DNA of 64,000 bases from Eledone cirrhosa (taxonomy: Eukaryota): assembly GCA_964016885.1 (NCBI GenBank), contig OZ024750.1:26908001-26972000 (forward strand). Direction: 5' to 3'. Positions 4,120 through 64,000 of the stretch are shown here, one piece after another. A model generated the notes under the pieces. That model was not told where the DNA came from and made no database searches. It saw only the letters and a program-made list of their open reading frames with translations. The translations under genes and the position numbers were made by a program. Numbering within the stretch: position 1 is the stretch's first letter; the number at the start of each line of letters is the position of its first letter.

Positions 4120-4178
<59 letters not shown>

Positions 4179-4270
4179 GAACACTGGAAAGTAATATCTG
4201 TAGTGGTAGAGCACTCTGTCCATGGGACGAGTTAGGTAGAAGTGGTTTCACAACAGTTAGTTCACCATAC

Positions 4271-4308
4271 CGAGAACAATTGTTTCATCTTAGCGGATCC
4301 TCAGCTCG
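4271..4308 (-). ncRNA. Minimal type I hammerhead ribozyme (family A) in the inverted pLTR
   Basis: cgag-CTGAGGA-tccgctaagat-GAAA-caattg-TT-ctcg. Confidence 0.8.
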
Positions 4309-6441
4309 TAATGAATATCGTTATACGTAACAGGAAGTACAACCGTACGAACGCGCATGCCCAGAAACGATCACTTCACACAGGCAATACTAAATTGCGT
4401 GTGAGCGGTGTGAGGGAGATAACTGCGAAACACCCTAGCACCTTTCAAACTAAACTTAGAAATGATAGTAAGAAATTTAGGTCTTCTAATATCATTTTCA
4501 TTCTTTCCGACAAAACTAATAATATTTACGAAGTCGACAACACCACTTTCCGCCACTTGGCACATAACGCTATTACTTCCAAAAGCTAACCCTATGGCCT
4601 ACCACGACATTAATACAGAAACCAAAGAACTTGCTGCCGCCCTTAACGTAGATAAGAAGCTACAATCTCTATCTAAGCGGGAAGCGTTCCTCACCCTGAA
4701 AGATCACGAGGTAGACTTTACTTCTAACCCCACATGTAGACTAATAAACCCGGCACGCACATATATGGGACTAGTCAGTAAGGCCATACTTAGAAACATA
4801 GTTAAGACCATTTGGACCAAGTCCAACCTGTCCCAGGGGGAGAACAACGACTCCTTAATTAAGTGGTTTAACTCCTTCAAATACAAAAAAGCGAAGTTCA
4901 CACAGTTTGACATTGTTTATTTTTACCCGTCGATATGAGAGACCCTGTTAAACAAAACGTTGGACTTTGCTACCACTTACACTACCGTCGATGGTTTAGA
5001 CAGGGAAATCATCGCTCACTGCCGGAAAACCCTCCTCTTCAACAGCGGATTAGCGTGGGCAAAGAAGTCAAGAACTTCAGACCTATTCGACGTCTCCATG
5101 GCATCGTTTGACAGTGCTAACGTATGCAACTTGTTTGTCCTATTTATTTTAGACATATCACGTGTTAGATTCCCGGACCTCCACACGGGAATATACCGCG
5201 ATGATGGACTGATATTATAGAGCCATAAAAGTGGTCATTACCTCGACAGGTTTAAAAAAGACTTAGCTTCTAGCTTCAATGAGCTAGGACTTAGGATAAC
5301 AGTAGCTACCAACCGCTCTAGCGTAGATTTCTTAGACATTAGTTTAGACCTTCGCACACACACCTACAGACCCTTCCATAAGCTAAACGAAATACTCAAT
5401 TACATACACAAGGACTCACGCCACCCTCCCACTGCTTTTAGAAACTTTGTAAATAATATCAGTACTAGAATCTCAAACCTTTCCTCTAATAAGGCTATCA
5501 TTGACAGGGCGGCACGCTATTATAACACGGCGTTATCTAACAGCGGCTTCTCGCAACCTATCACTTACTCTCCCACTAACAACAACAGCAATAAGAAAAG
5601 AAAGCGTAACAATAGACAAACTATCTGGTTCTCTCCTCCCTTCTCACTCAACGTTAAAACCAATGTAGGCAAAAAATGTCTAGCCCTCTTAGATAGACAT
5701 TTTCCTATAGGTCATACATACTGCTCCATCTTTAACCGACACAAAGTAAAACTAGGATACATCTGCGCTAAGAACATGAAAGCCGACATCATCAACAGCC
5801 CTAAGAGCAACACCCCACCAGGGTGCTCTTGCCGTAAGCCCGAAGCTTGTCCCCTTCAACAGCAATGCAACACACCCGCTGTAGTTTATGAAGCTGTGAT
5901 CACTTCCAACCGACCAAATCAACCACAGGAGGTCAAATCCTATGTGGGTATGGCGGAGGGCTGATTTAAGGAACGCTTCCTGAACCACCAGTCGACCTTT
6001 AAGTACCCGGATAGACGTTCATCCACGAAACTCGCTAGCCACGTATGGTCCCTCAAGGACTCAAATATAGACTACTCCATTCAATGGAAAGCCATCACTA
6101 AGTCCAAACCATACGCAAGGGGCAATCCGTCGTGTGGACTATGTATTGATGAACGAATAAATATTCTAAAGAGATTACGCAATAGTGATTGCATAAACAC
6201 GAAAAATGAATTCTTCACACGTTGTCCACACGTCTGCAAACACCTCTTACATAACTATAAAGCTCCGGATTGAATTACAACAACATCCTAATTTTCTTAC
6301 CAACTAGAAAATTTCGGACTTTCGCAGTTATCTCCCTTACACCTCTCGCACGTAATTTAGTACTGCCTGTATGAAGTGATCGTTTCTGCGCATGAGCATT
6401 AGTACGGTTGTCCTTCCTGTTCCGTATAACCATGTCCATTA

Positions 6442-6479
6442 CGAGCTAAGGATCCGCTAAGGTGAAACAATTGTTCTCG
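6442..6479 (+). ncRNA. Family A hammerhead in the 3' pLTR, core mutated (CTAAGGA)
   Basis: cgag-CTAAGGA-tccgctaaggt-GAAA-caattg-TT-ctcg; G5>A is probably inactivating. Confidence 0.7.
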
Positions 6480-6531
6480 GTATGGTGAACCAACTGTTGT
6501 GTAACCACTTCTATATATATATACATATATA

Positions 6532-9873: not shown

Positions 9874-10195
9874 CTTCACCCAGGCAGGGGATTTCCACCA
9901 CCTCAAAATGATTAAGGCCCCACAGGACACCTATAAAACTTTAAAAAACAACTTTAAAGAGGACGTGGGTCCCCCCTGCGTCGGGCCCATTAACCGCGTC
10001 CTCCTAAAAAAACTACCCCACCCCCTCCCCAAACACCCACACAACTCCAAACTCCCCAACCACACAACACACTGATGCCCCTACACTTCCACAAACCACC
10101 ACCCACCCAACAACCCATCGCCCACCCTAATGGAAATTGTGCAGCCCAATACCCGGGACGCAGAGAGGTAAGTGCCTTTTCTCTTCACCACCAAC

Positions 10196-13100
10196 ATGGC
10201 TATGCTAAGAGTAGGCTGTTTAAATGCGCGTGGCCTGGGCTCAACTTGGAAGCAAGCAATGCTTCTAAATGACCTCAGGTCACAACGTATAGATGTGATG
10301 GTTATTTGCGAGACCCGGATCAGCAACGTGCGACAGCTGGCCCCCACCTTTGATGACTTTGAGATGCACGCATCTCTCTGTCAGCCCGGAGGTGGGGGTG
10401 GGGTTGTCGTTCTGCTGCAAAAACATCTGGGTCTCGCAACACAGATGGTACATTTGGACCCGGAGGGTCGACTAGTGGTTCTGGACCTTGGCAGTGGTAA
10501 AGGCGGAACGTTTAGGTTGGTAGCCGCCTACGGCCCTTTCGGGTCAATGCGGCCGGACTTCTTCCATCGTCTGGAGACTTTTCTAGGGACGTCCCGCTCC
10601 TTGCTATTAGTGGGGGACTGGAATGGTATCCTACATGCACGCTGGGACTACGTAGGGGGCTGTCCCGATAGAGAGGGGTGTAATAGCCTCAAAGGGTTAA
10701 TCGGTCGATTTGACCTGGCCGATAGATATCGACTAGATTTTCCGACTGCGCCAACCTGGACTTGGGCAAATCGTAGCGGATCATCTAGGTCGTACCTAGA
10801 TAGGTTCTTAGTTAGAATTAAGGATAAGGACTTTTTAAGTTGTCCAAAAATGCGCATGGTTGGTTATTCAGACCACAAATTAGTGACCTGCATGGTCAAC
10901 CTTGACAGAACTCATAGACAGGGAACCGGTTACTGGAAGCTCAACTTGTCCTTACCGGCAAGTAAGGCTTACAGGGACCGGATTAGCACTTTAGTTAAGG
11001 AGCGGTTGACGGGCGCCATCGTCAACAGCAGGTGGTGGGGATCTCTCAAAAGAGAGATTAGAGTAGTCTCTATAGAATTTAGTAAGGAGTTAGCCTCAAA
11101 TAGAAATAGGAAGGAAAGGGAGTTGGTAGATAGTGTAGAAGAGGCAATTAGAAGCGGCGACGTAGCCAGAGTGCTAGCGTCGAGAACGGCCCTGGGCCAG
11201 TTCTTCGACGCGAAACACGAAGACTGCAGCGTCCGAAGCAAAATACGTGCTCTGGGAAACGAGGGGACCAAAGCTGTTAGCTGGGCCCGCGTGACAGAAG
11301 CCAAAAGAGGGAGCAGATCCACTATCCGGTCTTTGCGAGACCAGGATGGACGGGTGATCCTTGAACCTAAGCAGATGTGCGAGGCTTTTCAAAAGCACCT
11401 TGCCGGATTGTTCGGAAGGGGCGGGGAGCCGGTTGGGGATGTGGACTTCGGTCCATACCTCGACGGCCTGCCGCGTCTCTCGGACAGGGAGGCGAAGTCC
11501 TGCGAGGAGCCGATTTCAGCCGCTGAGATAGAGGACGTGCTGAGCCAATGCGGCAAACGCAAATCCCCGGGTCTCGATGGTCTTCCATACGAACTATATC
11601 TAGCTATGCCGGACTTGTTCCCCGATCTCCTCGAGGCGGTCTACTGCAACTGGCAACAGAAGGGGAGAATTCCCTGTGCTGTGACCAAGGGCGAAGTCAC
11701 GCTAGTGAGGAAGGACGAGAACAAGGGGGACGATATAAATAATTTTAGGCCCATAACTCTGCTAAATACAGAGTTACAGATTTTGGCAAAGGTGCTAGCA
11801 AAGAGGTTGGCGCTTGTCGTGGGTAACCTGGTGGTAGATGCGCAGACATGTGCTATCCCGTCCAGGTCCATCCATGACAACCTCCACCTCATGCGATACA
11901 TCATAGAGAGGGTTGGGAACGAACCCGGCTTTGGTGGGGCCCTGATCAACTTGGTTCAATCTAAGGCATTCGATAGGGTCGACCATGGTTACCCGGATGC
12001 GGTGTTAGCGGCGGCAGGCTTCGGACCCATTTTCAGGGGCTGGATCAATGCCATGCACAGCAGCCGCATCTGCTCTAGGGTCAAGGTGAACGGCTACCTC
12101 TCGGAGCCGTTCGAAATCGCGCGGTCCATCTGACAGGGGTGCCCTCTCTCCTCCCTTCTGTATGTAATGACTCTAGAGCCACTGCTGCGGAAGTTGGAGT
12201 TGTTGCAGGGCATTCCGTTGGAACCGGGATTGCGGAAAGCGGTGTCAGCCTACGCCGATGACGTAACAGTAATGGTGTCGACGGCCTCGGAAATCGGGGC
12301 GATCGGCACCTTACTGGAGGAGTACGAAAGGTTTACAGGGGCTAAGCTGAACCGGGACAAGTCGATCGGTCTGCAACTCGGTACGTGGAGGGGAAGATCG
12401 ATGCCCTCCGAAGGCGTTGTCGGGCGCTGGACGGAGGGCCCGGTGAAGTTGCTCGGGGTCTGGTTCGGACCAGACCTCCAGGTGGAGAAGAACTGGGGTG
12501 AGGTAACGAACAGGGTGTTTGCACTGACCCAGAAGTGGGCCGAGTGCAAACTGTCCCTGAAAGGTCGGGCGGAGGTGGCGAACACTTATATAGCGTCCGT
12601 CATCTACTACCGCCTGACCGTTGTGCCTTGCCCAAGGGAAACGCTCGCCAAATTGGAGCGCGCACTCTTCCAATTCCTTTGGAATATTCCAATTCCTTTG
12701 GAAGAAGCGGGCTCCTATGGTGAGGAGATCCATCTGCTGTCAACACCCTTCGAAAGGAGGGCTGGGGATGCCGTGGCTAATGATACGTAAACACGCATTA
12801 AGGCTACGGCACCTTCAGGTATTCCTCTCCGGTCAACCGGTGTGGGCCCCGTTTGTGAGGCGAGCCTTTCCCAGACTCGTCTCACTCACCGAGCTGCAAT
12901 CCTGGGTCAAGCAAAGAGCGAGAAAACTGTGCGCCTGGCACACCGGGTGTGCCCAGGTGCTCACGGCTCTCTGGCAGGCGGACCCGGATGTCAGTGGAGA
13001 ATCCACCTCGTCATTCTATAGAGGGCTGGTGGTTAGCAGGTGCGACGACGCCCTCGGAGAAGCCCTAGGCATGGAGGAAGACGAGCTGGCAAACCTATCG

Positions 13101-13650
13101 GTAGGACATTCAGCCCGGGACCCATGGACAACTTCCAGAGGTCCCTGGCCTGGCAATGCTACAGAAGGGCTCTCCCGTTCGAGAAAGGCTATACAGACAC
13201 GGGCGCCCGGGTAGGGACCCCTCGAAAAAGATCTGTCCCAGATGCGTGAGCGACGAGGAAACAGTTGCACACGCATTGGTACACTGCTCGGGCATTGCCG
13301 ATCTGTGGGGCTATGTCGAACAACTGCTGTCAAGGGTGGGACCGATCCGGTTGACCCCCGAGTCTATTGTAACGATCAAGCCGCCTCCCCTCTTCAAAAA
13401 CGAAGAAGAGGCGGTGTTTCTGTGCGTAATAGCCATGGCGAAAGAGGTTGTATGGTGGACGCGTCTGAAAGGACTGAGGTCAGACACCTTTCTCTCTGGC
13501 CAACAACTGGTCCGTTTCTTCCGATATCATTTCGGAAGAAGGATCAGGATGGAGAGAGAGGTGCTGCACCCCAGCCGTTTTTATGAAAGATGGGTGAAAG
13601 TGGCGAGAATGGCCCGTGTGAATGGGCCTTCACTCTACATCAGACTATAG
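10196..13650 (+). pseudogene. Tx1 ORF2: AP endonuclease, reverse transcriptase, C-terminal zinc motif
   Basis: CLNARGL, GDWN, SYLDR, SDH, SPGLDG, NFRPITLLN, AFDRV, QGCPLS, YADD, CPRC..H..C; TGA at 12131, a 19-bp tandem duplication frameshift near 12668-12703, another frameshift near 13100. Confidence 0.93.
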
Positions 13651-13920: not shown

Positions 13921-13972
13921 AATATAAGATCAAAAGATGGTTAAAGGAGTTCCATGTATTTTATTATGCGCA
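13921..13972 (-). mobile_element. Short fragment of family C HHR element
   Basis: Matches 22178-22229 (aatataagatcaaaagatgg...tatgcgcat). Confidence 0.8.
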
Positions 13973-19829: not shown

Positions 19830-19927
<98 letters not shown>

Positions 19928-20039
19928 CTTGATCACCTTGATCGACCAGTCTGTCAGGCACCATTGTTGTTCATTTGTTCAACACTGGCAGGAAGGTATA
20001 CGTTGCAGGAAGGTATGCAATCATCTGCAGGAAGGTATA

Positions 20040-20080
20040 CGTTGCTGACGATAACTAATAAGCTTGAAACTAGTACAGCG
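20040..20080 (+). ncRNA. Minimal type I hammerhead (family R, copy 1)
   Basis: cgttg-CTGACGA-taactaataagctt-GAAA-ctag-TA-cagcg. Confidence 0.85.
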
Positions 20081-20470
20081 CTCCTTTTTCAGTGTTGAAC
20101 AAATGAGCAACGATGGTTGCTAGACACTGTACGGCTTAATTCGGGATGTTTGTTTACAAACACACCGAACATTATAATAAATGTTCGGTGAATCCATACG
20201 TACATATATATATGTGTGCATGCATGTATATATATATACATACTACTGTACGTCTGTATACATATATGTATGTACGTATACATACTTATATTTAAGTAAC
20301 AGCCGTACTAAGAGTGAGAAATGAAATTTCGTTTCAATTTTTCCGTTTATCGTTTTCGGTGCGCCCGGCCGATTAACTCACTCGATATGCAAATTAGGCT
20401 GTTCAGCCGCTAATATGCATAAGGAAAGTATATACTTTCAGACGTTCAATCATCCTGGCAGGAAGGTATA

Positions 20471-20510
20471 CGTTATGACGATAGCTAATAAACTTGAAAC
20501 TAGTACAGCG
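20471..20510 (+). ncRNA. Family R hammerhead copy 2, damaged core
   Basis: cgtt-ATGACGA-...-GAAA-ctag-TA-cagcg; C3 and one stem I base lost. Confidence 0.7.
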
Positions 20511-20899
20511 TTCCTTTGTCAGTGTTGAACAAATGAGCAACGATGGTTGCTAGACACTGTACGGCTAAATTCGGGATGTTTGTTTACAAACACACCGAGC
20601 ATTATATTAAATGTTCGGCAAATCCATACGTACATATATATATGTGTTCATGTATGTATATATATATACATACTACTGTACGTCTGTATACATATATGTA
20701 TGTACGTATACATACTTATATTTAAGTAACAGCCGTACTAAGAGTGAGAAATGAAATTTCGTTTCAATTTTTCCGTTTATCGTTTTCGGTGCGCCCGGCC
20801 GATTAACTCACTCGATATGCAAATTAGGCTGTTCAGCCGTTAATATGCATAAGGAAAGTATATACTTTCAGGTGTTCAATAATCTGGCAGGAAGGTATA

Positions 20900-20940
20900 C
20901 GTTGCTGACGATAGCTAATAAACTTGAAACTAGTACAGCG
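20900..20940 (+). ncRNA. Minimal type I hammerhead (family R, copy 3)
   Basis: cgttg-CTGACGA-tagctaataaactt-GAAA-ctag-TA-cagcg. Confidence 0.85.
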
Positions 20941-21229
20941 TTCCTTTGTCAGTGTTGAACAAATGAGCAACGATGGCTGCTAGACACTGTACGGCTTAAT
21001 TTGGAATGTTTGTTTACAAACACACCGAGCATTATAATAAATGTTCGGCGAATCCATACGTACATATATATATATGTGTGTGGATGTATGTATATATATA
21101 TATATATATATACATACTATTGTACGTCTGTATACATATATGTATGTACGTATGCATAAATATATTTAAGTAACAGCCGTACTAAGTGTGAGAAATGAAA
21201 TTTCGTTTCATTTTTTCTGTTGATATATA

Positions 21230-22091
<862 letters not shown>

Positions 22092-22213
22092 AGGAGGTGA
22101 GTTTTATTGTAGTACAATAAAGCAATGCAGATATCGGATAAGAAGCACTCTACAGTTTGTAGGACTGGAGTATACATAATATAAGATCAAAAGATGGTTA
22201 AAGGAGTTCCATG

Positions 22214-22284
22214 TATTTTATTATGCGCATTTCAAAAACAAACATCATCATGCAATAATATTTGTGTTTTCATCAGATAAAACA
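22214..22284 (-). ncRNA. Type I hammerhead (family C, left arm)
   Basis: Reverse complement tgttttat-CTGATGA-aaacacaaatattatt gc atgatgatgtttgttttt-GAAA-tgcgca-TA-ataaaata. Confidence 0.88.
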
Positions 22285-22392
22285 GGAGAACATGATATGA
22301 AGGTTAAAAAACACTTGTGGATAGTGCAGTTTTAAATCAACATATAACTGCACTATCCACAAGTGTTTTTTAGCCTTCATATCATGTTCTCC

Positions 22393-22463
22393 TGTTTTAT
22401 CTGATGAAAACACAAATATTATTGCATGATGATGTTTGTTTTTGAAATGCGCATAATAAAATA
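22393..22463 (+). ncRNA. Type I hammerhead (family C, right arm)
   Basis: Same motif on the plus strand: CTGATGA 22401, GAAA 22444, tgcgca, TA, ataaaata. Confidence 0.88.
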
Positions 22464-22659
22464 CGTGGAACTCCTTTAACCATCTTTTGATCTTATATAT
22501 TATATATAGATATATATATATATATATATAAACACACGCACACGGACACACACACATATATATACATAGATATATATATAAAAAAAGAGTCAGGAGCCCG
22601 ACGGCTGAGCTCCGGACGTTTCGGCAGCTAAATCCGAACTAAGCCACCAGTATTAGAAC

Positions 22660-23147: not shown

Positions 23148-23695
23148 TTTCTTGAAAGGTCGAGCGGAGGTGGCGAACACTTACATTGCGAATTTCTGTT
23201 GTCCTCTGTATAGTGGCTATGGTAAAAGAGGCTATATTGTGGACAAGATGGAGAGGGCTGAGGACAGATGCATTTCACTCCGGACAACTCATTCCCTTCT
23301 TTAGGTACCACTTTAGAAGGAAAATCAGAGTGGAGAGAGAGGGACTGCACCCCAGTAAATTAAACTGGAATGTGGGTGAATGTAGTAAAAGTGGCCCGAG
23401 AGATTGGGCCTTCTCTGTATATAAACCTGTAGGTTGAAGAAGAGAGCAAAAGAAAGAATGGTGCACTTGCACAACACGCTCCTGGAGTTGAGGGTTGTTC
23501 AATCTACGGGGTATAAAACAATACATTTGTAACGCCTCCCACCTGTTGGGGATTTTAATTGTTGAATTTGTGAATTTGTTTGTCAAATTGTTTTTACACT
23601 TTTGTATGTAAAATTCCCGGCATATATCCTTGTATTGTCCCCTTTTCTTGTGCGCCCTTGTGGCAAATAAAGAAATCTATCTATCTATCTATCTA
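23148..23695 (+). mobile_element. Tx1 3' fragment with an internal deletion and (TATC)n tail
   Basis: LKGRAEVANTYIA joined to AMVKEAILWTR; 3' UTR homologous to 25775-26010. Confidence 0.85.
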
Positions 23696-26007
23696 AGATA
23701 CGGGACGCTCAGGGCCGCTGCGGGAAACGCAAGTCACCCAGTATAGATGGTCTACCCTACGAATTTTACATAGGCATGCCGGACTTGTTCTCTGGCGTCC
23801 TCGAAGCCGTCTACTGCAATTGGCAGCAGAACGGGAGAATTCCAAGTTCAGCAGGCAAGGGCGTAGTAACGCTGATCAGGAAAGACGAAAACAACGGGGA
23901 CGAAATTAACAACTTCAGGCCCATAACTCTGCTCAACACAGAGTTAAAAATGTTGGCCAAGGTGCTAGCGACGAGGTAGGGAAAGCGCAAACGTGTGCAA
24001 TCCCGACCACGTCCATACACGACAACCTCCACCTCATGCGATACATCATAGAGAGGGTGGGTGGTAAACCCGGCTTCGGTGGGGCTCTGATCAAATTGGA
24101 TCAGTCTAAGGCATTCGATAGGGTCGACCATCGATACTTGGAAGCGGTTCTCAAGGCGGCCGGTTTCGGTCCCGTGTTCAGAGGATGGATCGATGCGATG
24201 CACACCAGAATCTGCTCGAGGGTCAAGGTGAACGGCTACCTATCGAAGCCGTTCGCAATCACGCGTTCCATTCGACAGGGGTACCTTCTCTCCTCCATTC
24301 TGTATGCATTGACACTAGAGCCACTACTGCGGAAATTGGAGCTGTTGCAGGGCATCCCTCTAGAACCGGGACTGCGCAAAGCGGCGTCGGCTTATGCCGA
24401 CGACGTGACGGTAATGGTGTCGAGCACCTCGGAAATCGGGGTGATCGACAACTTACTGAAAGAATACGAAACGCTGACGGGAGCAAAACTAAACCCGGAC
24501 AAGTCTGTCGGTTTGCAACTCGGTACGTGGAGAGGCAAGCCGATGACGTCCGACAGCGTCGTTGGACGCTGGACGGACGGACCGGTGAAATTGCTCGGGG
24601 TCTGGTTCGGTCCAGACCTCCAGGTGGAGAAAAACTGGAACGAGGTCACGGCCAAGGTGTTTGCACTCACCCAGAAGTGGGCAGAGTGCAAACTGTCCTT
24701 GAAAGGTCGAGCGGAGGTGGCGAACACTTTCATAGCGCCCGTCATCTACTACCGCTTGACTGTCGTGCCTTGTCCCCGTGAACCCCTCGTCAAGATGGAA
24801 CGCATGCTCTTCCAGTTTCTGTGGAAGAAGCAGGCTCCGCTGGTGAGGAGATCCGTCTGCTGTCAGCACCCTTCGAACGGAGGGCTGGGAATGCCGTGGC
24901 TGATGATGCGCAAGCATGCGCTGAGGCTGCGGCATCTCCAGGTATTCCTCACCGACTCCCAACCGGTGTGGGCACCGTTTGTGAGACAGGCTTTCCCACA
25001 GCTCGTCTCGCTAACGGAGCTGCAGTCCTGGGTGAAGAAAAGACCGAAAACGATGGGCGCCTGGCACATTGAATGCGCTCAGGCGCTCACAGTCCTCTGG
25101 CAAGCGGGCGCAGCAATCAGTGGAGACTCCACTTCGACATTCTATAGAGGGATTGTACGTTACAAGGGCGACGACGTGCTCGAAGAGACTCTGGGCGTCG
25201 AAGACGATGAGCTCACCAGTATGTTTGGTAGGACTTTCCGCCCGGGACCTATGGACAACTTCCAGAGGTCCCTGGCCTGGCAGTGCTACCGAGGAGCTCT
25301 ACCGGTTCGTGACAAGATCTACAGGCACGGACGCCCTGGCAGAGATCCTTCCAAGAGGACGTGTCCAAGATGTGCGCAGGACATTGAAACAGTTCTGCAC
25401 GCAATTGTACACTGCCCGGGCGTAAGCGACCTGTGGAACTATGCAGAACAACTGCTGTCGCGTATGGGACAAATACAGTTGACTGCCGAGTCCATAGTAA
25501 GGATCAAACCGCCAGACTCTTTCAAAAAGGAGAGGCGGTTTTCCTCTGTACGGTGGCTATGGTGAAAGAAGTTATATGATGGACGAGGTTGAGAGGACTG
25601 AGGTCAGATGCCTTTCTCTCCGGACAACAATTGATTCCCTTCTTTAAGTATCACTTTAGAAGGAGAATCAGGGTGGAGAGAGAGGCACTGCACCCCAGTA
25701 AATTTACTGAAAGGTGGGTGAATGAAGCGAAAATGGCCCGAGTGATTGGGCCTTCTCTGTTTATAAGCCTGTAGGTTGGGGAAGAGAGCAAAAGGAAGAA
25801 AGGAGCACTTGCACAACACGCTCCTCCAGTTGAGGGTTGTTCTATCGACGGGGTATTAAACAACCCATTTGTGGCGCCTCCCCCCTATTGGGGATTTCGA
25901 TTGTTGAAATTGTTGGTTTTTATAATTTTTACACGACTGTATGTAAAATCCCCGGCATGTCTTTGTATTGTCCCCTTTCTTGTTGCGCCCTTGTGGCTAA
26001 TAAAGAA

Positions 26008-31424: not shown

Positions 31425-33820
31425 AAATCCCCAGGAAAAGACAAAATACAAAACTTTTGGATAAATGCCTTCACAGAGTCTCAAGAGCTGTTAGCCCAAC
31501 TTTACAATGAAATAGTTAAGGAGCCAGAAAAGATACCTTCATGGCTAGTTAACGGCATTACATTCCTGCTTCCGAAGAATGATGAGACAAACAATCCCCA
31601 AAATTACAGACCGATAACTTGCTTGACCACAATGTATAAAATGTTAACATCAGTCCTAACTGAATACACATATGACCACCTGATAACAAATGACCTATTT
31701 CCCATTGAGCAGAAAGGGTGTAAACGAGGCTCATATGGCTGTAAGGATCAGCTTTTGGTTAACAAAATGATACTGGAAGATTGTCATAATAAACACAAAA
31801 ATCTATCGATTGCTTGGATAGATTATAAAAAAGCATTCGATAGTTTGCCACACAGTTGGATTGAAAAATGTTTAGAGATTTTCAAAATATCCCCCGTTGT
31901 CAGGAGGTTTTTGTCATTCAGTATGAAGACATGGAAAACGAGACTCCTTTTGAATAGTGAAACAAAATCACTGGAAGCTGGAGAAGTTAATATTAATTGT
32001 GGAATTTTTCAGGGTGACTCTTTATCACCGCTTTTATTCTGCATCGCACTTATACCATTAAGTAAAATGCTCAATGAAACAAAACATGGATATAAAGTCT
32101 ATGACAAAACCATTAATCACTTGTTCTACATGGATGACCTGAAACTATTTGCAAAAAATGATGAACAATTGCAAGGTCTATTATCCACTGTGGAGCAGTT
32201 CAGTGATGACATTAAAATGGAGTTTGGACTAGATAAATGCGCCAAAGCAACGTTCACCAGAGGAAAGCTGCTGAAGAGTTCAGACATTAATCTTGATCGG
32301 GGGAACGTGATAAGAGAACTTGATCAAGAAAAAACTTACAAATATCTAGGTGTTTGTGAAGGAGACGGAATCAAGCACTCGACAATGAGGGAAAGGATAA
32401 GGAAGGAATGTTACCGCAGAGTAAGAGCAATCTTAAGAACGGAATTGAATGCAAGGAATAGGATCGATGCCATAAACACGCTTGCCATACCAGTAGTAAC
32501 CTACAGTTACAATGTCATCAACTGGTCAAGCACAGAGATCCGTAGGCTCGATACAAAAATTCGAAAATTCTTAACCATGCACAGAATGCATCACCCTAAG
32601 GCAGATATAGATAGAATATATCTCCCTAGGAAAGAAGGAGGACGTGGGTTAATGTAGTTAGACATTGCGTTGAAAACTGCAACAATTGGATTATCTACAT
32701 ATCTAAGGGAATCACATGATTGGATGATCAAACTCGTTTTGAAACACGAAAGCATCAAAAGATCATATTCCATTACAAAAGATGCACAAAGATACAGTAA
32801 TGGACTACAAATTTCAGAAGTCTCATTTACTGCTGAAATGGAAAACACAGAAAAAGCAAAGCAGGTAAAAGTAACTGCAAAGAAAGAACTGCTACAGAAA
32901 CTGGCTAAGAAATGGCAAGAAAAGCCTCTGTATGGAAAATACCCAGAGCGAGCTAACAATCCTGATGTTGACAAAACTTTAACCCATCAGTGGTTGGCAT
33001 CCTCTGGACTGAAATCGGAGACTGAAGGACTGATTATATCAGCACAAGATCAGTGTCTGCCAACAAAAAATTACCAAGCCAACATAATAAAAAATGGATG
33101 CAGCCCATTATGCCGTGTATGCAAAAAACAACCAGAGACCATTGACCATATAATTTCAATGTGCAGTCCTATAGCTCCAACCGAATACCTAAACAGGCAT
33201 GACAGAGCTACACAATACATACATTGGATAATGTGTAAGCATTTTGACCTGCCCCATCAAAAGAATTGGTGGGAGCATCAACCACCTCCCATACTTGAAA
33301 ACGATCACATCTCAATCTTGTGGAACTTTAGCATCCAAACAGACCGAAAAATAGATGCGAATAGACCTGATATAATATTGAAGGACTTTAAAAAGAGGGT
33401 ATGCCTGCTAATTGATATGTCTGTTCCAATAGACAAGAATGTATCTATAAAAACATTTGAAAAATTGAGCAAGTATAAGGACCTGGAGATAGAAATTGGA
33501 AAAATGTGGAAATTGAGAACTAAAACAATACCAGTGGTTGTAGGCGCTCTGGGAATGATACCTAAGGGGTCTAATGATTACTTATCGCAAATCCCAGGAA
33601 ACCCGCGTATAGGAGAAATACAAAAGATAGTACTAATGGGAACTGCCCATATACTAAGGAAGATTCTGTCAATATAAGTACATCACAAGTCTAAACACTA
33701 AAGATGCATGTGTGAGTATGTATGTTCTTTCTTGAACATGGCGGACCTTGTTGTCTCTTGAGGTCACTGGTTGTGACTTGGTGATAACTCGTATGAACAT
33801 AAAGCAAGATAAATGCAACT

Positions 33821-37988: not shown

Positions 37989-37993
<5 letters not shown>

Positions 37994-38531
37994 AATCATT
38001 TTTTAATTTATTTAAAGGATTGTTTAATGTTTGTTTGTTCTGCTCATCAATTTTTATAGTTCTGGTATCTCAAATTAGTACCATAGAACAACAATTATAT
38101 TATAAACACCCTATATATCTCTATGGGTACTTAGTACTCAGTGAGATATTTACCTCATTTTTATACATTCTCCAATGTATGTAGAGAAAAAAATTCGTTG
38201 TTGCTTACTGCTATTTTTTTAGCAGCCAACCCATCAACAAGTCTGTAATATTCCCGCTTGCACTAGCGGCCGGGTCACGTGTGGGTCACTTTAACGCCCA
38301 TAACTCATACGAGCTGGTAGTTGGCATTATATTTGCGGACCGTGGGACGTTTGTCCTATAGAAAGGAAATAGCTATCTGATGAAATCTACTTTCCGTTGG
38401 AAATTCTCTGAATTTCCAATCTTTTGTAGATGGAAACCGCCGGTAATAGCATTATGAACAGGTAGATATTTAAATCATTTTTTAATTTATTTAAAGGATT
38501 GTTTAATGTTTGTTTGTTCTGCTCATCAATT

Positions 38532-38532
<1 letters not shown>
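37989..38532 (+). mobile_element. Retrozyme-like monomer (family B relative) with an about 64-nt terminal redundancy, period 479, in (TA)n
   Basis: 37989-38052 recurs at 38468-38531; homologous along its length to 21460-21986. Confidence 0.85.
38372..38450 (+). ncRNA. Type I hammerhead with extended stem II (family B)
   Basis: gctat-CTGATGA-a atctac..ttggaaatt ctctg aatttccaa..gtagat g-GAAA-cc gcc gg-TA-atagc. Confidence 0.9.
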
Positions 38533-38613
<81 letters not shown>

Positions 38614-39790: not shown

Positions 39791-39852
39791 GCCTTAATAA
39801 AATGAATATACATATATAGTATGTTGTTGTTGTATCTGGGTGGACGAATATA

Positions 39853-41805
39853 ATGCAGCCCAACAAAAGGACTGCCAACAACTTCCAGGCCTGGAACAAT
39901 GACGTGCCGGCGTTGTATGGGCTCCGAAAAGACCATAAAACGGGCTGGGACCCTGTCGCGGGACCACCAACACGGCCAGTCTGTGGGGCTAACATTGCTA
40001 GTAACTACAGACTGTCCTACTTCCTCTCCCTGATCATACGCCCCATTATTGAGATGTCCCCAGATGTGTGTGACAGCACGGAGGACCTCCTCAGCAGAAT
40101 CGGCGCGGGTAACCGATCTGGGGACCTAACAAACTGCATAATAGGCAGTATGGATGTTGTGTCCCTGTATCCATCTATTGACGTGGATTTTGCTGTGGAG
40201 AAATGCGTCGAAATGATCAGCGAGAGCAAGGTTGAGTTCCGTGGGATTGATACCAGTGAGCTGGGACTTCTACTTAAGCTTACCCATAGTAATAGTTACC
40301 TAGACACTTATGATATTAGCAACCTGTGCCCTACAAGACCAGCAAGGGGCAGACCACCTACCATTACCTCAATGGCCAAGAAAACCCACACAGATAGATG
40401 GAACGGGTGGACCAGAGCCATACGGACACCCGAAAACCACGATGAACTGAAGAAAATGATTGCACATGCGGTAGGGGCCAGCATAAAATTAACCCTTAAG
40501 GAACATATGTTCAAATTTAATGGTAAAACATATGCCCAAGAGGAAGGAGCAGCCATTGGTGTTAGCATTGCAGGCGACATAGCTAACTTATTCATGGTAT
40601 GGTGGGACAGTAGACTTAAACAAAAACTTAATGAACAATTAGAAGACAGCTTAACCCTGATAATGTACTCCCGCTACGTAGATGATATAAACATCGTAGT
40701 TAAGACACCCCCACTAAAGAACAGTCAGGAACTAGAGAAAAACACAATGGAAAGCATCCAGCAAATAGCAAACTCCATCCACCAGAGCAATAGAGTTACT
40801 ATAGACTACCCAAGTAGACACCCCAACCATCGATTACCTGTACTAGACACAGAGCTCTGGTTAGATACCATTAACAACCAAAAACAAATCCTCCATTCCC
40901 ATTATGCCAAACCCATGACTTCCAAACATCTGATCCACCGAAACTCGGCCATTTCGGACCATACCAAAATCAACATACTGATTGCGGATTTGGTACGGGT
41001 GATGAGAAATGTGTCCCGCATGTGCAACCCCGAAGAACTAGAGAGACACATACAACACTTCATCCACCGTATGCAGTTCTCTGGCTACAATCAGAGAGAT
41101 AGGACCAGAGTGTATAAAGGAGCCAGAACCAAATGGGAAAAAATGTTAAATAATGACATAAATGGGACCTGCCCCTTGTATAGGAGCAAATTTTGGAATA
41201 GAATAGAAAGAACTAGGAACAAGGCCAATAGAATAAACTCATGGTATGATAGCAATAAATACCAGAGTGTAATGTTCATCAATACAACCCCTAGAGGCGA
41301 ACTAGCCTACAAATTTAGAAGGGCCCTAAATAAACATAATCTCAATATTAAGATAGTAGAAAGACCTGGTACCTCCATAAAAACACTTATTAGCAAGACA
41401 TACCCGTTCCAAAGACCCTCATGTATAGATAAGAAATGTATAACCTGTAAAATAAGCCCCCATATTAACTGTAAAACTAGAAATGTAGTGTATAGCATAA
41501 GATGTACTGAAGGACAATGTAGAAACAAAAATATAGTGTACATAGGTGAGACAGCTCGTAGTATAAAGGAACGAATAAATGAACACTGGCGAGACCTCCA
41601 AGATAATAAAGAATCATCTGTGCTCTACCAACATGCTAAGATGGAACACAGGGGTAGATTAGAGAGCATAGAAATAAAAATAGAATCCACACACAGAAAA
41701 GACGCAATGTTTAGGCAAATTACAGAGGCAGTAAGCATAAAAGAATTAAAACCAAAATTAAATAGAAAATATGAGTGCAACAGCAACATCACAACTTACA
41801 ATTAA
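39853..41805 (+). CDS. Penelope-like (probably Naiad clade) RT plus GIY-YIG endonuclease, uninterrupted 650 aa, probably 5'-truncated
   Basis: GLRKDHK, RPVCGA, SMDVVSLYPSI, GAAIG, RYVDD, LPVLD, HYAKPM, C-x4-C-x2-C linker, VVYSIRC..C..YIGETARSIKERINEH. Confidence 0.9.
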   Translation: MQPNKRTANNFQAWNNDVPALYGLRKDHKTGWDPVAGPPTRPVCGANIASNYRLSYFLSLIIRPIIEMSPDVCDSTEDLLSRIGAGNRSGDLTNCIIGSMDVVSLYPSIDVDFAVEKCVEMISESKVEFRGIDTSELGLLLKLTHSNSYLDTYDISNLCPTRPARGRPPTITSMAKKTHTDRWNGWTRAIRTPENHDELKKMIAHAVGASIKLTLKEHMFKFNGKTYAQEEGAAIGVSIAGDIANLFMVWWDSRLKQKLNEQLEDSLTLIMYSRYVDDINIVVKTPPLKNSQELEKNTMESIQQIANSIHQSNRVTIDYPSRHPNHRLPVLDTELWLDTINNQKQILHSHYAKPMTSKHLIHRNSAISDHTKINILIADLVRVMRNVSRMCNPEELERHIQHFIHRMQFSGYNQRDRTRVYKGARTKWEKMLNNDINGTCPLYRSKFWNRIERTRNKANRINSWYDSNKYQSVMFINTTPRGELAYKFRRALNKHNLNIKIVERPGTSIKTLISKTYPFQRPSCIDKKCITCKISPHINCKTRNVVYSIRCTEGQCRNKNIVYIGETARSIKERINEHWRDLQDNKESSVLYQHAKMEHRGRLESIEIKIESTHRKDAMFRQITEAVSIKELKPKLNRKYECNSNITTYN

Positions 41806-42111
41806 GGACAAAATGAAAACACACACACACATAGAACAAACAACTTACAATTGAAAACACACACAAAATGAAAACACACACAGGACAAAATGAAAACACA
41901 CACACACATAGAACAAACAACCAACCAACAATAAATAAATAAATAAATAAACAAATAGAAAAATATGAATAGAAAAATAAAAAATAAACACAAACACACA
42001 CAGACACCCGGATGTGGCGCATGCACAAACTGAGCACACAACACACACACAGAAACAAAATGGCGTAGGATAGAAGAAAGCAAAGGCACAGAAACGAAGA
42101 AAGGAATCCCC

Positions 42112-42156
42112 AGTCACTGAAAAGGTCACAGAGTGTGTGACGAAAGGACTATGACT
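42112..42156 (+). ncRNA. Hammerhead-like motif in the Naiad-like 3' pLTR, variant core CTGAAAA
   Basis: agtca-CTGAAAA-g gtcaca gagtg tgtgac-GAAA-ggac-TA-tgact; stems I and II pair perfectly. Confidence 0.72.
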
Positions 42157-42305
42157 ATATATATAAACAACTATCTGGTTGCGGAACCAACCAACCAACC
42201 AGAAATTTATAAGTTTGTAGATTTGTAAATTTGTAAATTTATGAATTTATAAATATATAATAAATTGAAGTGAAAGCAGCTGGTGCGTGTGTTTCTTATT
42301 GGCAA

Positions 42306-44298: not shown

Positions 44299-44332
<34 letters not shown>

Positions 44333-44604
44333 GTAGGAGGTGAGTTTTATTGTAGTACAATAAAGCAATGCATATATCGGATAAGAAGCACTCTACAGTT
44401 TGTAGGACTGGAGTATGCATAATATAAGATCAAAAGATGGTTAAAGGAGTTCCATGTATTTTATTATGCGCATTTTAGCCTCCATATCATGTTCTCCTGT
44501 TTTATCTGATGAAAACACAAATATTATTGCATGATGATGTTTGTTTTTGAAATGCGCATAATAAAATACATGGAACTCCTTTAACCATCTTTTGATCTTA
44601 TATT
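44333..44604. mobile_element. Family C fold-back HHR element with a shorter inverted arm
   Basis: Homologous to 22089-22498 with a different inversion junction; flanked by (TA)n. Confidence 0.9.
44498..44568 (+). ncRNA. Type I hammerhead (family C)
   Basis: tgttttat-CTGATGA-stem II-GAAA-tgcgca-TA-ataaaata. Confidence 0.88.
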
Positions 44605-53800: not shown

Positions 53801-53805
<5 letters not shown>

Positions 53806-53939
53806 ATGGACATACGAGCTGAGGATCCGTTAAGGTGAAACAATTGTTCTCGATGTGGTGAACTAACTGTTGTGTAACCACTTCTACCTAACTCTACTGA
53901 GTGCTCTACCACTACGGATGTTACCTTCCAGTGTTCTAC

Positions 53940-53945
<6 letters not shown>
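53801..53945 (+). mobile_element. Solo family A pLTR 3' end with HHR, in (TA)n
   Basis: Homologous to the reverse complement of 4172-4310. Confidence 0.88.
53815..53852 (+). ncRNA. Minimal type I hammerhead (family A), intact core
   Basis: cgag-CTGAGGA-t cc gttaa gg t-GAAA-caattg-TT-ctcg. Confidence 0.85.
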
Positions 53946-58342: not shown

Positions 58343-58645
58343 AGGCGGAGGACTGGCAGTATCGGTAGAGCGTCAAACACCATGGCCCTTTATGTTCTGA
58401 GTCCAAATCTGCCGAGGTTAACTTTGCCTTTCATCCTTACGGGGTCGATCAAATAAAGTACCAGTAATGCACTGGGATAATTGCTGGCCTTGTACCAAAT
58501 GCAGCATGGAGTTATGGCCCTTTATTTTCTGAGTTCAAATCCGCCGAGGTTAACTTTGCCTTTCATCCCTGCGGGGTCGAAAGAATAAAGCACCAGTAAT
58601 GCACTGGGATAATTGCTGGCCTTGCGCCAAAAGTAGAAACAATTA
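58343..58645 (+). mobile_element. Two tandem OK-like SINE copies
   Basis: Duplicated ctgagttcaaat..gaggttaactttgcc block. Confidence 0.85.
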
Positions 58646-63102: not shown

Positions 63103-63416
63103 TATATATATATGTATGTATGTATATACACAGACACATACATATATCACCATGCCAGTATGTTCATGTCTATATATAAATGTTGTTGATAGAAATGTAT
63201 ATGCGATTGTGTGTATATATGTATGTGTATATGTGTGCTTTGTTTGCATGACAATGTATTATACTTGAGTGCCTTAATTGAAGCATATGGATACATACAT
63301 ACGTACTCTTAATGCGATATGCATTCACAGATACACACATACACATACACACGCACGTATACATATGTATTTACGTGTATATACACACACATATATATAT
63401 ATTTATATGTATATAC

Positions 63417-63496
<80 letters not shown>

Positions 63497-63498
<2 letters not shown>

Positions 63499-63917
63499 AA
63501 TAGAATGAAACGAAATTTCATTTCTCACTCTTAGTACGGCACTTACATAAAAGTAAGTATGTATGTATGTATACGTACATACATATATGTATACAGACGT
63601 ACAGTAGTATGTATATATATACATACATGCACGCATATATATATATATATGCACGTATCGGTTTACCGAACATTTATTGTAATGCTCGGTTTGTTTGTTT
63701 GTAAACAAACAAACAGCCCGAATTACGCCGTACAGTGTTTAGGCAACCACGTCACCCATTTGTTTAACACTGACACAGGAACGATGTACTAGTTTCATGC
63801 TTATTAGCTATCGTCAGCATCGTATACCTTCCTACCAGATGGTTGAACGTCTGAAAGTATATACTTTCCTTATGCATATTAACGGCTGAGTAGCCTAATT
63901 TGCATATCGAGTGAGTT
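63497..63917 (-). mobile_element. Dispersed monomer of retrozyme family R
   Basis: Reverse complement of the 430-nt unit; ends next to (TA)n at about the same position as the array. Confidence 0.9.
63781..63823 (-). ncRNA. Minimal type I hammerhead (family R), best-paired copy
   Basis: acgatg-CTGACGA-ta gct aata agc at-GAAA-ctag-TA-catcgt. Confidence 0.92.
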
Positions 63918-64000
63918 CAGTTACCTATGTAAAAGGTAAACAGAAATAACAACACAATCGGTACAATATATGGAAGGTATATATTAGGTTAACGCTTGAT

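Follow-up and report, generated by a model that had tools for sequence, protein, structure and literature searches.

Family R, a dispersed repeat of Eledone cirrhosa with a unit of 430 nt, is most probably a non-autonomous non-LTR retrozyme, moved by the enzyme of a Penelope-like element (PLE) and primed at a fixed internal site in (TA)n tracts; we assign this reading a probability of roughly 0.7. R is a new family within a known class of elements, and the mechanism has also been published.

Family R in the analysed window

The window, that is, the whole 64,000-nt stretch of DNA analysed here, is animal-like DNA rich in microsatellites and retroelements, and its regional GC is 0.33-0.34. A SINE at 58382-58631 points to an octopus-like host. 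Family R is present as a tandem array and as a solo copy, with the following features:

19926..21222, plus strand: family R tandem array, about 2.8 units (TRF period 430, 93% matches)
19960..19987, minus strand: inverted piece of the R unit at the array's 5' end; read in reverse, it agrees with the unit at 26 of 28 nt
63391..63496, no strand given: (TA)n tract at the 3' junction of the solo copy, its likely target and primer (TRF, junction read directly)
63497..63917, minus strand: solo family R copy (BLAST to array units, alignment, mismatch count)
63918..63925, no strand given: 8-nt linker that separates the R copy, at its 5' end, from the neighbouring repeat (last R-homologous position 63917, end of the neighbour 63926)
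63926..64000, minus strand: family S, the 3' end of a different high-copy repeat (loose ends of reads, depth)

As the earlier note had stated (43 kb), the solo copy lies far from the array and on the opposite strand, namely on the minus strand, 42.3 kb from the array end. It is approximately 90% identical to the 430-nt tandem array: BLAST against the array units gives a local identity of 83.5-85.3% with gaps included, and its mismatch to two array units is 8.8% and 10.5%, compared with 3.3% between one array unit and another. It had been called a monomer, which is correct in so far as it is a single copy; however, with a length of 421 nt it lacks about 30 nt of the full unit of 430 nt, and on the 5' side another repeat adjoins it.

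The array is bounded by (TA)n at both sides, and its cuts are predicted after 20075, 20505, and 20935, at a spacing of 430. At its 5' end, the inverted piece is followed by short duplications. Between the (TA)n tract and this inverted piece lie 34 nt (19926-19959) with a short direct repeat, which do not clearly belong to family R.

Family R is non-coding. The ORF list contains no ORF of 100 aa within the array units, and over the solo copy there is one stop-free frame, of 111 aa, that consists mostly of microsatellite; a short frame crossing the array unit junction, seen by eye, was taken as a chance occurrence. Exact-pattern scans for R returned 0 matches in viral contigs, prokaryote genome contigs, and metagenome contigs. 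A literature search, with Repbase and Dfam outside its scope, retrieved no prior description of family R in cephalopods, and the giant squid paper, in its account of hammerheads, gives just a count of 235 (PMC6962438).

Abundance in sequencing runs

Reads from four runs (X1, X21, X4, and X6, out of 23 candidate runs), which represent at least two organisms, were placed on the window. Family R was met in 7725 contigs of X1, 41681 reads of X21, 4479 contigs of X6, and 6 of X4. It is thus abundant, with thousands of contigs in two runs and tens of thousands of reads in a third, although depth of this kind is no measure of copy number. The mobility of the family, as proposed in the earlier note, is supported by this abundance in runs of at least two organisms and by a copy on the opposite strand that lies next to a (TA)n tract.

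Loose ends at 63917-63921 run on into a spacer in 69 and 144 contigs (agreement 0.67 and 0.65), and 3 X21 reads continue past this spacer into the end of an R unit, which indicates that family R is tandem elsewhere as well. As other R copies continue past 63917, this position is no universal 5' end. A step in X21 depth at 63900, where 6791 of 6957 molecules end, probably reflects a RAD restriction cut at AATT and not biology. In the same run, 1983 reads depart from the reference at 63710 into other sequence; in a few reads 63710 is joined to 63897, so that 186 nt with the hammerhead are missing. Such reads suggest related families in which the structured 3' domain is retained and the R ribozyme is absent.

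The hammerhead motif

By its core and its helix order, family R carries a type I hammerhead and is a predicted ribozyme. In the solo copy all core residues (CUGAnGA, GAAA, UH) are present, and helices I-III follow each other in type I order. Its parts, all on the minus strand, are as follows:

63770..63838: type I hammerhead of the solo R copy (descriptor scan, pair counts)
63833-63829/63781-63777: distal stem I, 5 bp
63828-63823: 6-nt bulge in helix I
63822-63818/63786-63782: proximal stem I, 5 bp
63817-63811: hammerhead core CUGACGA
63810/63797: U·U at the start of helix II
63809-63806/63801-63798: stem II, with A·A at its base
63796-63793: GAAA of the core
63793-63788: palindromic helix III, 2 bp
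between 63787 and 63786: predicted cut

The type I descriptor has 10 matches in the window, compared with a mean of 0.14 in 100 shuffles. Those that belong to R lie at 63817 (cut after 63787) and, in the array, at 20045 and 20905; the middle array unit lacks the first C of the core. Searches with Rfam gave 0 matches at gathering score in the window. The best match of the solo hammerhead was weak (HH9, 15 bits, E 0.43, gathering score 52), and no hammerhead was found among the 102 weak matches listed for the R array. The full three-stem fold was not obtained in minimum-energy folds of the hammerhead region.

These results bear on the view that the hammerhead match arose by chance in a structured satellite that spreads by DNA recombination only. 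Such an explanation is extremely improbable. The descriptor is almost never satisfied by shuffled sequence, and among the 40 of 98 variant positions listed from the reads, the only one within the core is N7 (63813), a free core position; the missing Rfam hammerhead at gathering score, the flawed stem II of every window copy, and the lost core base of the middle array copy can be cited in its favor. Loop II and stem I also vary in the reads, among the same 40 of 98 positions. Palindromic helices III such as that of R have been linked to dimer activity (PMC4209133).

Two other assignments were set aside. Rfam microRNA matches to a TA-rich hairpin were all below the gathering score and of low complexity. 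A plant-type LTR retrozyme would have type III hammerheads in its LTRs, while the R motif is of type I and lies in head-to-tail units.

Stem I, stem II, and covariation

Stem I reads CGAUG/CAUCG in the solo copy and CGUUG/CAGCG in the array, and the pair 63820/63784 is A-U in the former, while each of the three array copies has a U·G wobble at this place. The change had been described in the earlier note as compensatory. Both partners have indeed changed with pairing kept, but this is a single event and not a significant one, as a double change at 1 of 21 pairs in four sequences was reached in 120 of 500 shuffles. Calculated analytically, the chance of at least one double change is 0.03 for the 10 pairs of stem I, 0.05 for the 16 pairs of the hammerhead, and about 0.33 for the whole unit.

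Reads from the four runs place this pair in a wider context. At 63820, U accounts for 52%, 29%, 36%, and 2% of depth and G for 14%, 58%, 64%, and 36% in X1, X21, X4, and X6, respectively, with A making up the rest. The position is therefore a three-letter polymorphism, and the solo copy carries a common variant and not a private repair. The 3' partner, 63784, is not among the 40 of 98 variant positions listed, and the read variants are unlinked. Taken alone, the compensatory change is weak evidence for the fold. RNAalifold on three copies placed double changes at 5 of 132 pairs; three of them fall in poorly aligned TA-rich columns, and they were not counted as covariation. X21 reads and one X4 contig revealed a subfamily in which the bulge and the distal 5' arm of stem I (63820-63834) carry several changes; partner changes at 63777-63781 are absent among the 40 of 98 positions listed.

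Stem II, which had been called perfect, is not so in the solo copy. The majority stem has 4 bp (AGCU/AGCU), the basal one of which (63809/63798) is replaced by A·A in the solo copy. In the four runs, the share of depth with the pairing letter at the base of stem II is 100%, 99.5%, 100%, and 79%; the solo copy lacks this letter. In none of the four window copies do all four stem II pairs occur together, and 75% of the cells are paired. As a lone copy whose pair at the stem II base is broken, the solo copy probably functions poorly as a ribozyme and represents a dead end.

Fold of the whole unit

The R unit is highly self-paired, with 67-69% of its residues in pairs and z between -7.3 and -9.5 (60 shuffles each). 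Units folded as circles give z -7.3 and -8.8, again against 60 shuffles each; the fold energy comes partly from trivial TA-rich palindromes. In the fold derived from the array, 35 substitutions break 6 pairs where 14.1 are expected (P 0.0006). When the test is turned round and the solo copy supplies the fold, 9 pairs are broken and 14.0 expected (P 0.027). This sparing of pairs across the unit is better evidence for selection on structure than the stem I change.

Two hairpins within 63676-63708 and 63727-63743 show how individual pairs differ between the copies. Both arms of one hairpin are longer by a 4-nt unit in the solo copy than in the array, and in the other pairing is kept through three wobble changes.

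The 3' junctions and probable internal priming

The (TA)n tract is met 290 nt past the cut in the solo copy (after 63787) and 287 nt past it in the array (after 20935), in agreement with the earlier note, in which both 3' ends were placed at about the same point (about 280 nt). Indels aside, the R junctions lie approximately 270 unit-nt past the cut. Their distance from each other, taken from a common anchor, is about 4 nt, and both lie on an AT that is common with the tract. The chance of two random ends falling so close is 2.6-4.6% for these two junctions, which are the two of two available in the window; read placement skipped the TA-rich 3' end. Both are located just 3' of a conserved hairpin, and at the junction site a three-way junction is predicted, with a U-rich single-stranded linker and a closing helix of 7-8 bp (z -1.8).

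The solo copy extends 130 nt upstream of the cut, through the cleavage site, which rules out a cleaved linear monomer as its template; the template would have been uncut, multimeric, or circular. Priming at an internal site instead of at the cleaved end, as proposed in the earlier note, is the best reading of a copy that spans the cut and of junctions within 4 nt of each other; the fixed position of that site rests on two junctions. Internal initiation as such is not new, as it has been published for a Penelope-like element (PMC11167929) and other families of the window show it too.

Three further repeat families in the window end at fixed points against (TA)n, one of them being the pseudo-LTR (pLTR) of a Penelope-like ORF. 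Family B, which has a type I hammerhead with a long helix II and a palindromic helix III, has five such ends, three short ones at one point and two long ones about 80 nt further; at each of two loci it forms an inverted pair, in which a short and a long 3' end lie about 80 nt apart, and the fifth end is at 13926. Family C has three ends against (TA)n, one short and two long, the short one being the pLTR behind a broken Penelope-like ORF.

The R junction could also be inherited, if a UA tail read through from a master locus pairs with nicked (TA)n, or if copies move as DNA together with their tract. Microsatellite-tailed SINEs are primed in a comparable way, by pairing of the tail with the nicked target. 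Two junctions are unable to tell inheritance from repeated choice, both lie on an AT common with the tract, and both loci have TA-rich surroundings. Even so, we regard inheritance as quite improbable: the R junctions differ by 4 nt while the copies differ by about 9-10%, families B and C each have two distinct end points, as two internal start sites predict, and the PLE of a lizard starts without target homology (PMC11167929).

The 5' flank of the solo copy

The neighbour of the solo copy, family S, shows high read depth over 63935-64000 and has a single fixed (TA)n junction, exactly at 63926, in all four runs. The (TA)n loose ends before this position come from contigs in X1 (112), X4 (1), and X6 (122) and from 2610 reads in X21. 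The solo R copy thus occupies the place of the usual (TA)n tract of family S. The simplest reading is that the R copy was inserted at the edge of an existing tract; alternatively, it may have come to the S end by a template switch. Beyond the window end, what seems to be a further hammerhead, represented by its 3' half, occurs in the read consensus of family S, some 95 nt upstream of the junction.

Other retroelements in the window

Penelope-like elements coexist with R in the window, in the form of a frame with reverse transcriptase (RT) and GIY-YIG domains and of a Hydra-like remnant. The features concerned, together with those of families B and C, are listed below:

4423..6512, plus strand: broken Penelope-like ORF of family C (ORF list), with a Hydra-like remnant at 4423-6273
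4237-4430 and 53813-53886: family C pLTR copies (sequence comparison)
13926, 22183, 22494, and 44330-44599: family B ends and loci
39820..41805, plus strand: open Penelope-like frame of 661 aa with RT, GIY-YIG, and a CX4CxxC linker (Pfam)

In the Pfam search of the 39820-41805 frame, GIY-YIG was above the cut-off (E 7.8e-5) and RVT_1 below it (E 1.9e-4). A degenerate, canonical-looking hammerhead at about 42085-42125 follows this frame and runs straight into (TA)n (39820-42160). The three pieces of the broken ORF had no match in Pfam; this ORF contains the DKT and CxCx5C motifs, given as features of the Hydra clade in PMC8557442, and is followed by a pLTR with a degenerate hammerhead (damaged core) that ends at (TA)n. 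On its 5' side, the broken element as a whole (4173-6512) carries a pLTR in inverted orientation; a further pLTR copy, at 53802-53943, is an orphan. Both Penelope-like ORFs (4423..6512 and 39820..41805) are candidates for the type of helper that would serve R.

Family C is itself an example of what R might be instead, namely the pLTR of an autonomous PLE, with solo copies as 5'-truncated insertions from uncut linear transcripts, arrays formed by later local DNA duplication, and no unit-length or circular RNA. Such an origin of R is, in our opinion, unlikely. In family C a pLTR stands behind an ORF and has orphan copies, exactly as expected, whereas R units stand head to tail with no ORF between them, and within the 64-kb window R shares no sequence with either Penelope-like ORF region or with the pLTR. 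Local amplification of PLE termini has been proposed (bioRxiv 10.64898/2026.07.22.740005), and cleavage is dispensable for the lizard PLE (PMC11167929); however, contigs of two organisms run from 63917 into the same spacer, and the whole R unit is self-paired, with substitutions that spare its pairs.

Several further repeats were observed. Between 19863 and 22530, hammerhead-type repeats are piled up in successive (TA)n tracts, in the order of the R array, a diverged family E copy (21304-21986), and a head-to-head inverted family B pair (22086-22493). At 250-520 on the minus strand lies the hammerhead of family D, with a cut after 433, about 185 nt before (TA)n. Family E itself, at 37991-38533, has a hammerhead, a unit of about 480 nt, and a terminal direct repeat, and lies between two (TA)n tracts. 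Non-LTR retrotransposon frames are located at 10172-13650, 23671-25565, and 31425-33677; Pfam identified an endonuclease and an RT in the one at 10172 and an RT in the one at 31425, and the frame at 23.7-25.6 kb resembles the 10172 one by eye.

Comparison with known systems

Animal non-LTR retrozymes were described by Cervera & de la Peña (2020, PMC7229834) as tandem repeats of 150-450 bp with type I hammerheads that are expressed as circles, with PLEs proposed as helpers. R resembles them in being a short, low-GC, highly self-paired tandem repeat with one type I hammerhead per unit and PLEs alongside. It falls within a unit of 150-450 bp, one type I hammerhead per unit, and GC below 50%, the core of its middle unit being damaged. 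The closest example in that paper is HHR_Amex2 / Rtz_353 of the axolotl, which likewise has a helix III of 2 bp and, at the base of helix II, a U·U mismatch. At 430 nt, R lies at the long end of the size range, and neither a fixed internal priming site nor (TA)n targeting is among the features reported in the main account of PMC7229834. Transcription, cleavage, and circles were shown there; for R they are predicted.

The view that retrozymes derive from PLEs and are non-autonomous has been developed by Li, Clavereau & Pollet (2026, bioRxiv 10.64898/2026.07.22.740005), whose preprint gives phylogenetic support for PLEs. In Xenopus, according to this preprint, 24 of 57 families were linked to known elements, and 21 of the 22 matched were PLEs. 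Dispersed monomers, tandem multimers, and co-occurrence with PLEs are common to these retrozymes and R; unlike the linked Xenopus families, R has no parent PLE in the 64-kb window. Retrozymes are called 'active' in the preprint when they have two consecutive complete hammerheads, and the R array lacks such a pair; in vitro, 8 of 9 Xenopus retrozyme dimers tested there did not cleave. No junction map for any retrozyme was found in our literature search, which had the supplements of PMC7229834 and of the bioRxiv papers outside its scope.

Initiation within the RNA has been demonstrated in vitro for PAc, a Poseidon PLE of the green anole, for which reverse transcription starts at two internal sites with AT-rich cleavage of the target (Frangieh et al. 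2024, PMC11167929). PAc initiates without homology to the target. The R junction is similarly internal, downstream of the hammerhead, and at an AT-rich target; in PAc the two sites set a tail of 30-40 nt (PMC11167929). In contrast to R, PAc is an autonomous element, and its start lies in an AC-rich stem-loop about 85-92 nt beyond the cut (PMC11167929); R is non-coding and would start about 270 unit-nt past its own cut, in a U-rich linker.

Clades of PLEs that target (TA)n include Hydra, Naiad, and Neptune, and non-autonomous Chlamys elements such as MRC1 are known (Craig et al. 2021, PMC8557442). Inverted 5' pieces are presented in that work as a hallmark of PLEs, and tails of 30-40 bp are described (PMC8557442). 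R is like the PLEs of PMC8557442 and PMC4209133 in its apparent insertion in (TA)n and apparent 5' truncation, its inverted 5' piece, and its head-to-tail non-autonomous copies. A palindromic helix III suited to dimers is another property shared with PLE hammerheads (Cervera & de la Peña 2014, PMC4209133). R differs from the minimal PLE hammerhead in a canonical-size helix I with a bulge, a 4-bp helix II, and the absence of an ORF, and it has U·U where PLE hammerheads have G-C at 10.1-11.1 (PMC8557442, PMC4209133).

Proposed mechanism and significance

The repeat, in tandem and as a solo copy, its abundance, the hammerhead fold, and the (TA)n junctions are observed, and from them we infer the following RNA and enzyme steps. 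Tandem R loci would be transcribed into multimeric RNA, which the hammerheads would cut into units of 430 nt, perhaps ligated into circles; the 2-bp palindromic helix III would favor action in pairs. A PLE protein would then nick a (TA)n tract, and a short AT match would prime reverse transcription at a fixed internal position, some 270 unit-nt beyond the cut and just 3' of the conserved hairpin. The RT would pass the intact or religated cleavage site, completing several rounds at the array and just under one at the solo copy. For the solo copy, the landing site would have been the margin of a (TA)n tract that formed the end of another repeat by then.

Circles are not required by this scheme, since for PAc cleavage is dispensable for insertion and the main substrate is unprocessed RNA (PMC11167929). 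Tentatively, and with the predicted folds in mind, R may be a circular-RNA retrozyme whose helper starts reverse transcription at the structure-defined U-rich linker, the missing 30 nt being a PLE 'tail' bounded by two start sites or the result of a stop shortly before a full lap; this form of the model has a modest chance of being correct.

The integration of animal retrozymes is still an inferred step: the 2020 paper proposes PLE helpers and the 2026 preprint adds phylogenetic support, with no priming site mapped in the accounts that they give. To this question, the solo locus contributes one junction and one weak compensatory change. If a circular template and a structure-defined start are true of R, both ends of solo copies would be fixed, and this would be a direct genomic proof of a PLE enzyme mobilising retrozymes. 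With its abundance and a narrow 3' junction at (TA)n, a young family of this kind would be a convenient test case for linking retrozymes to the internal initiation demonstrated for one PLE.
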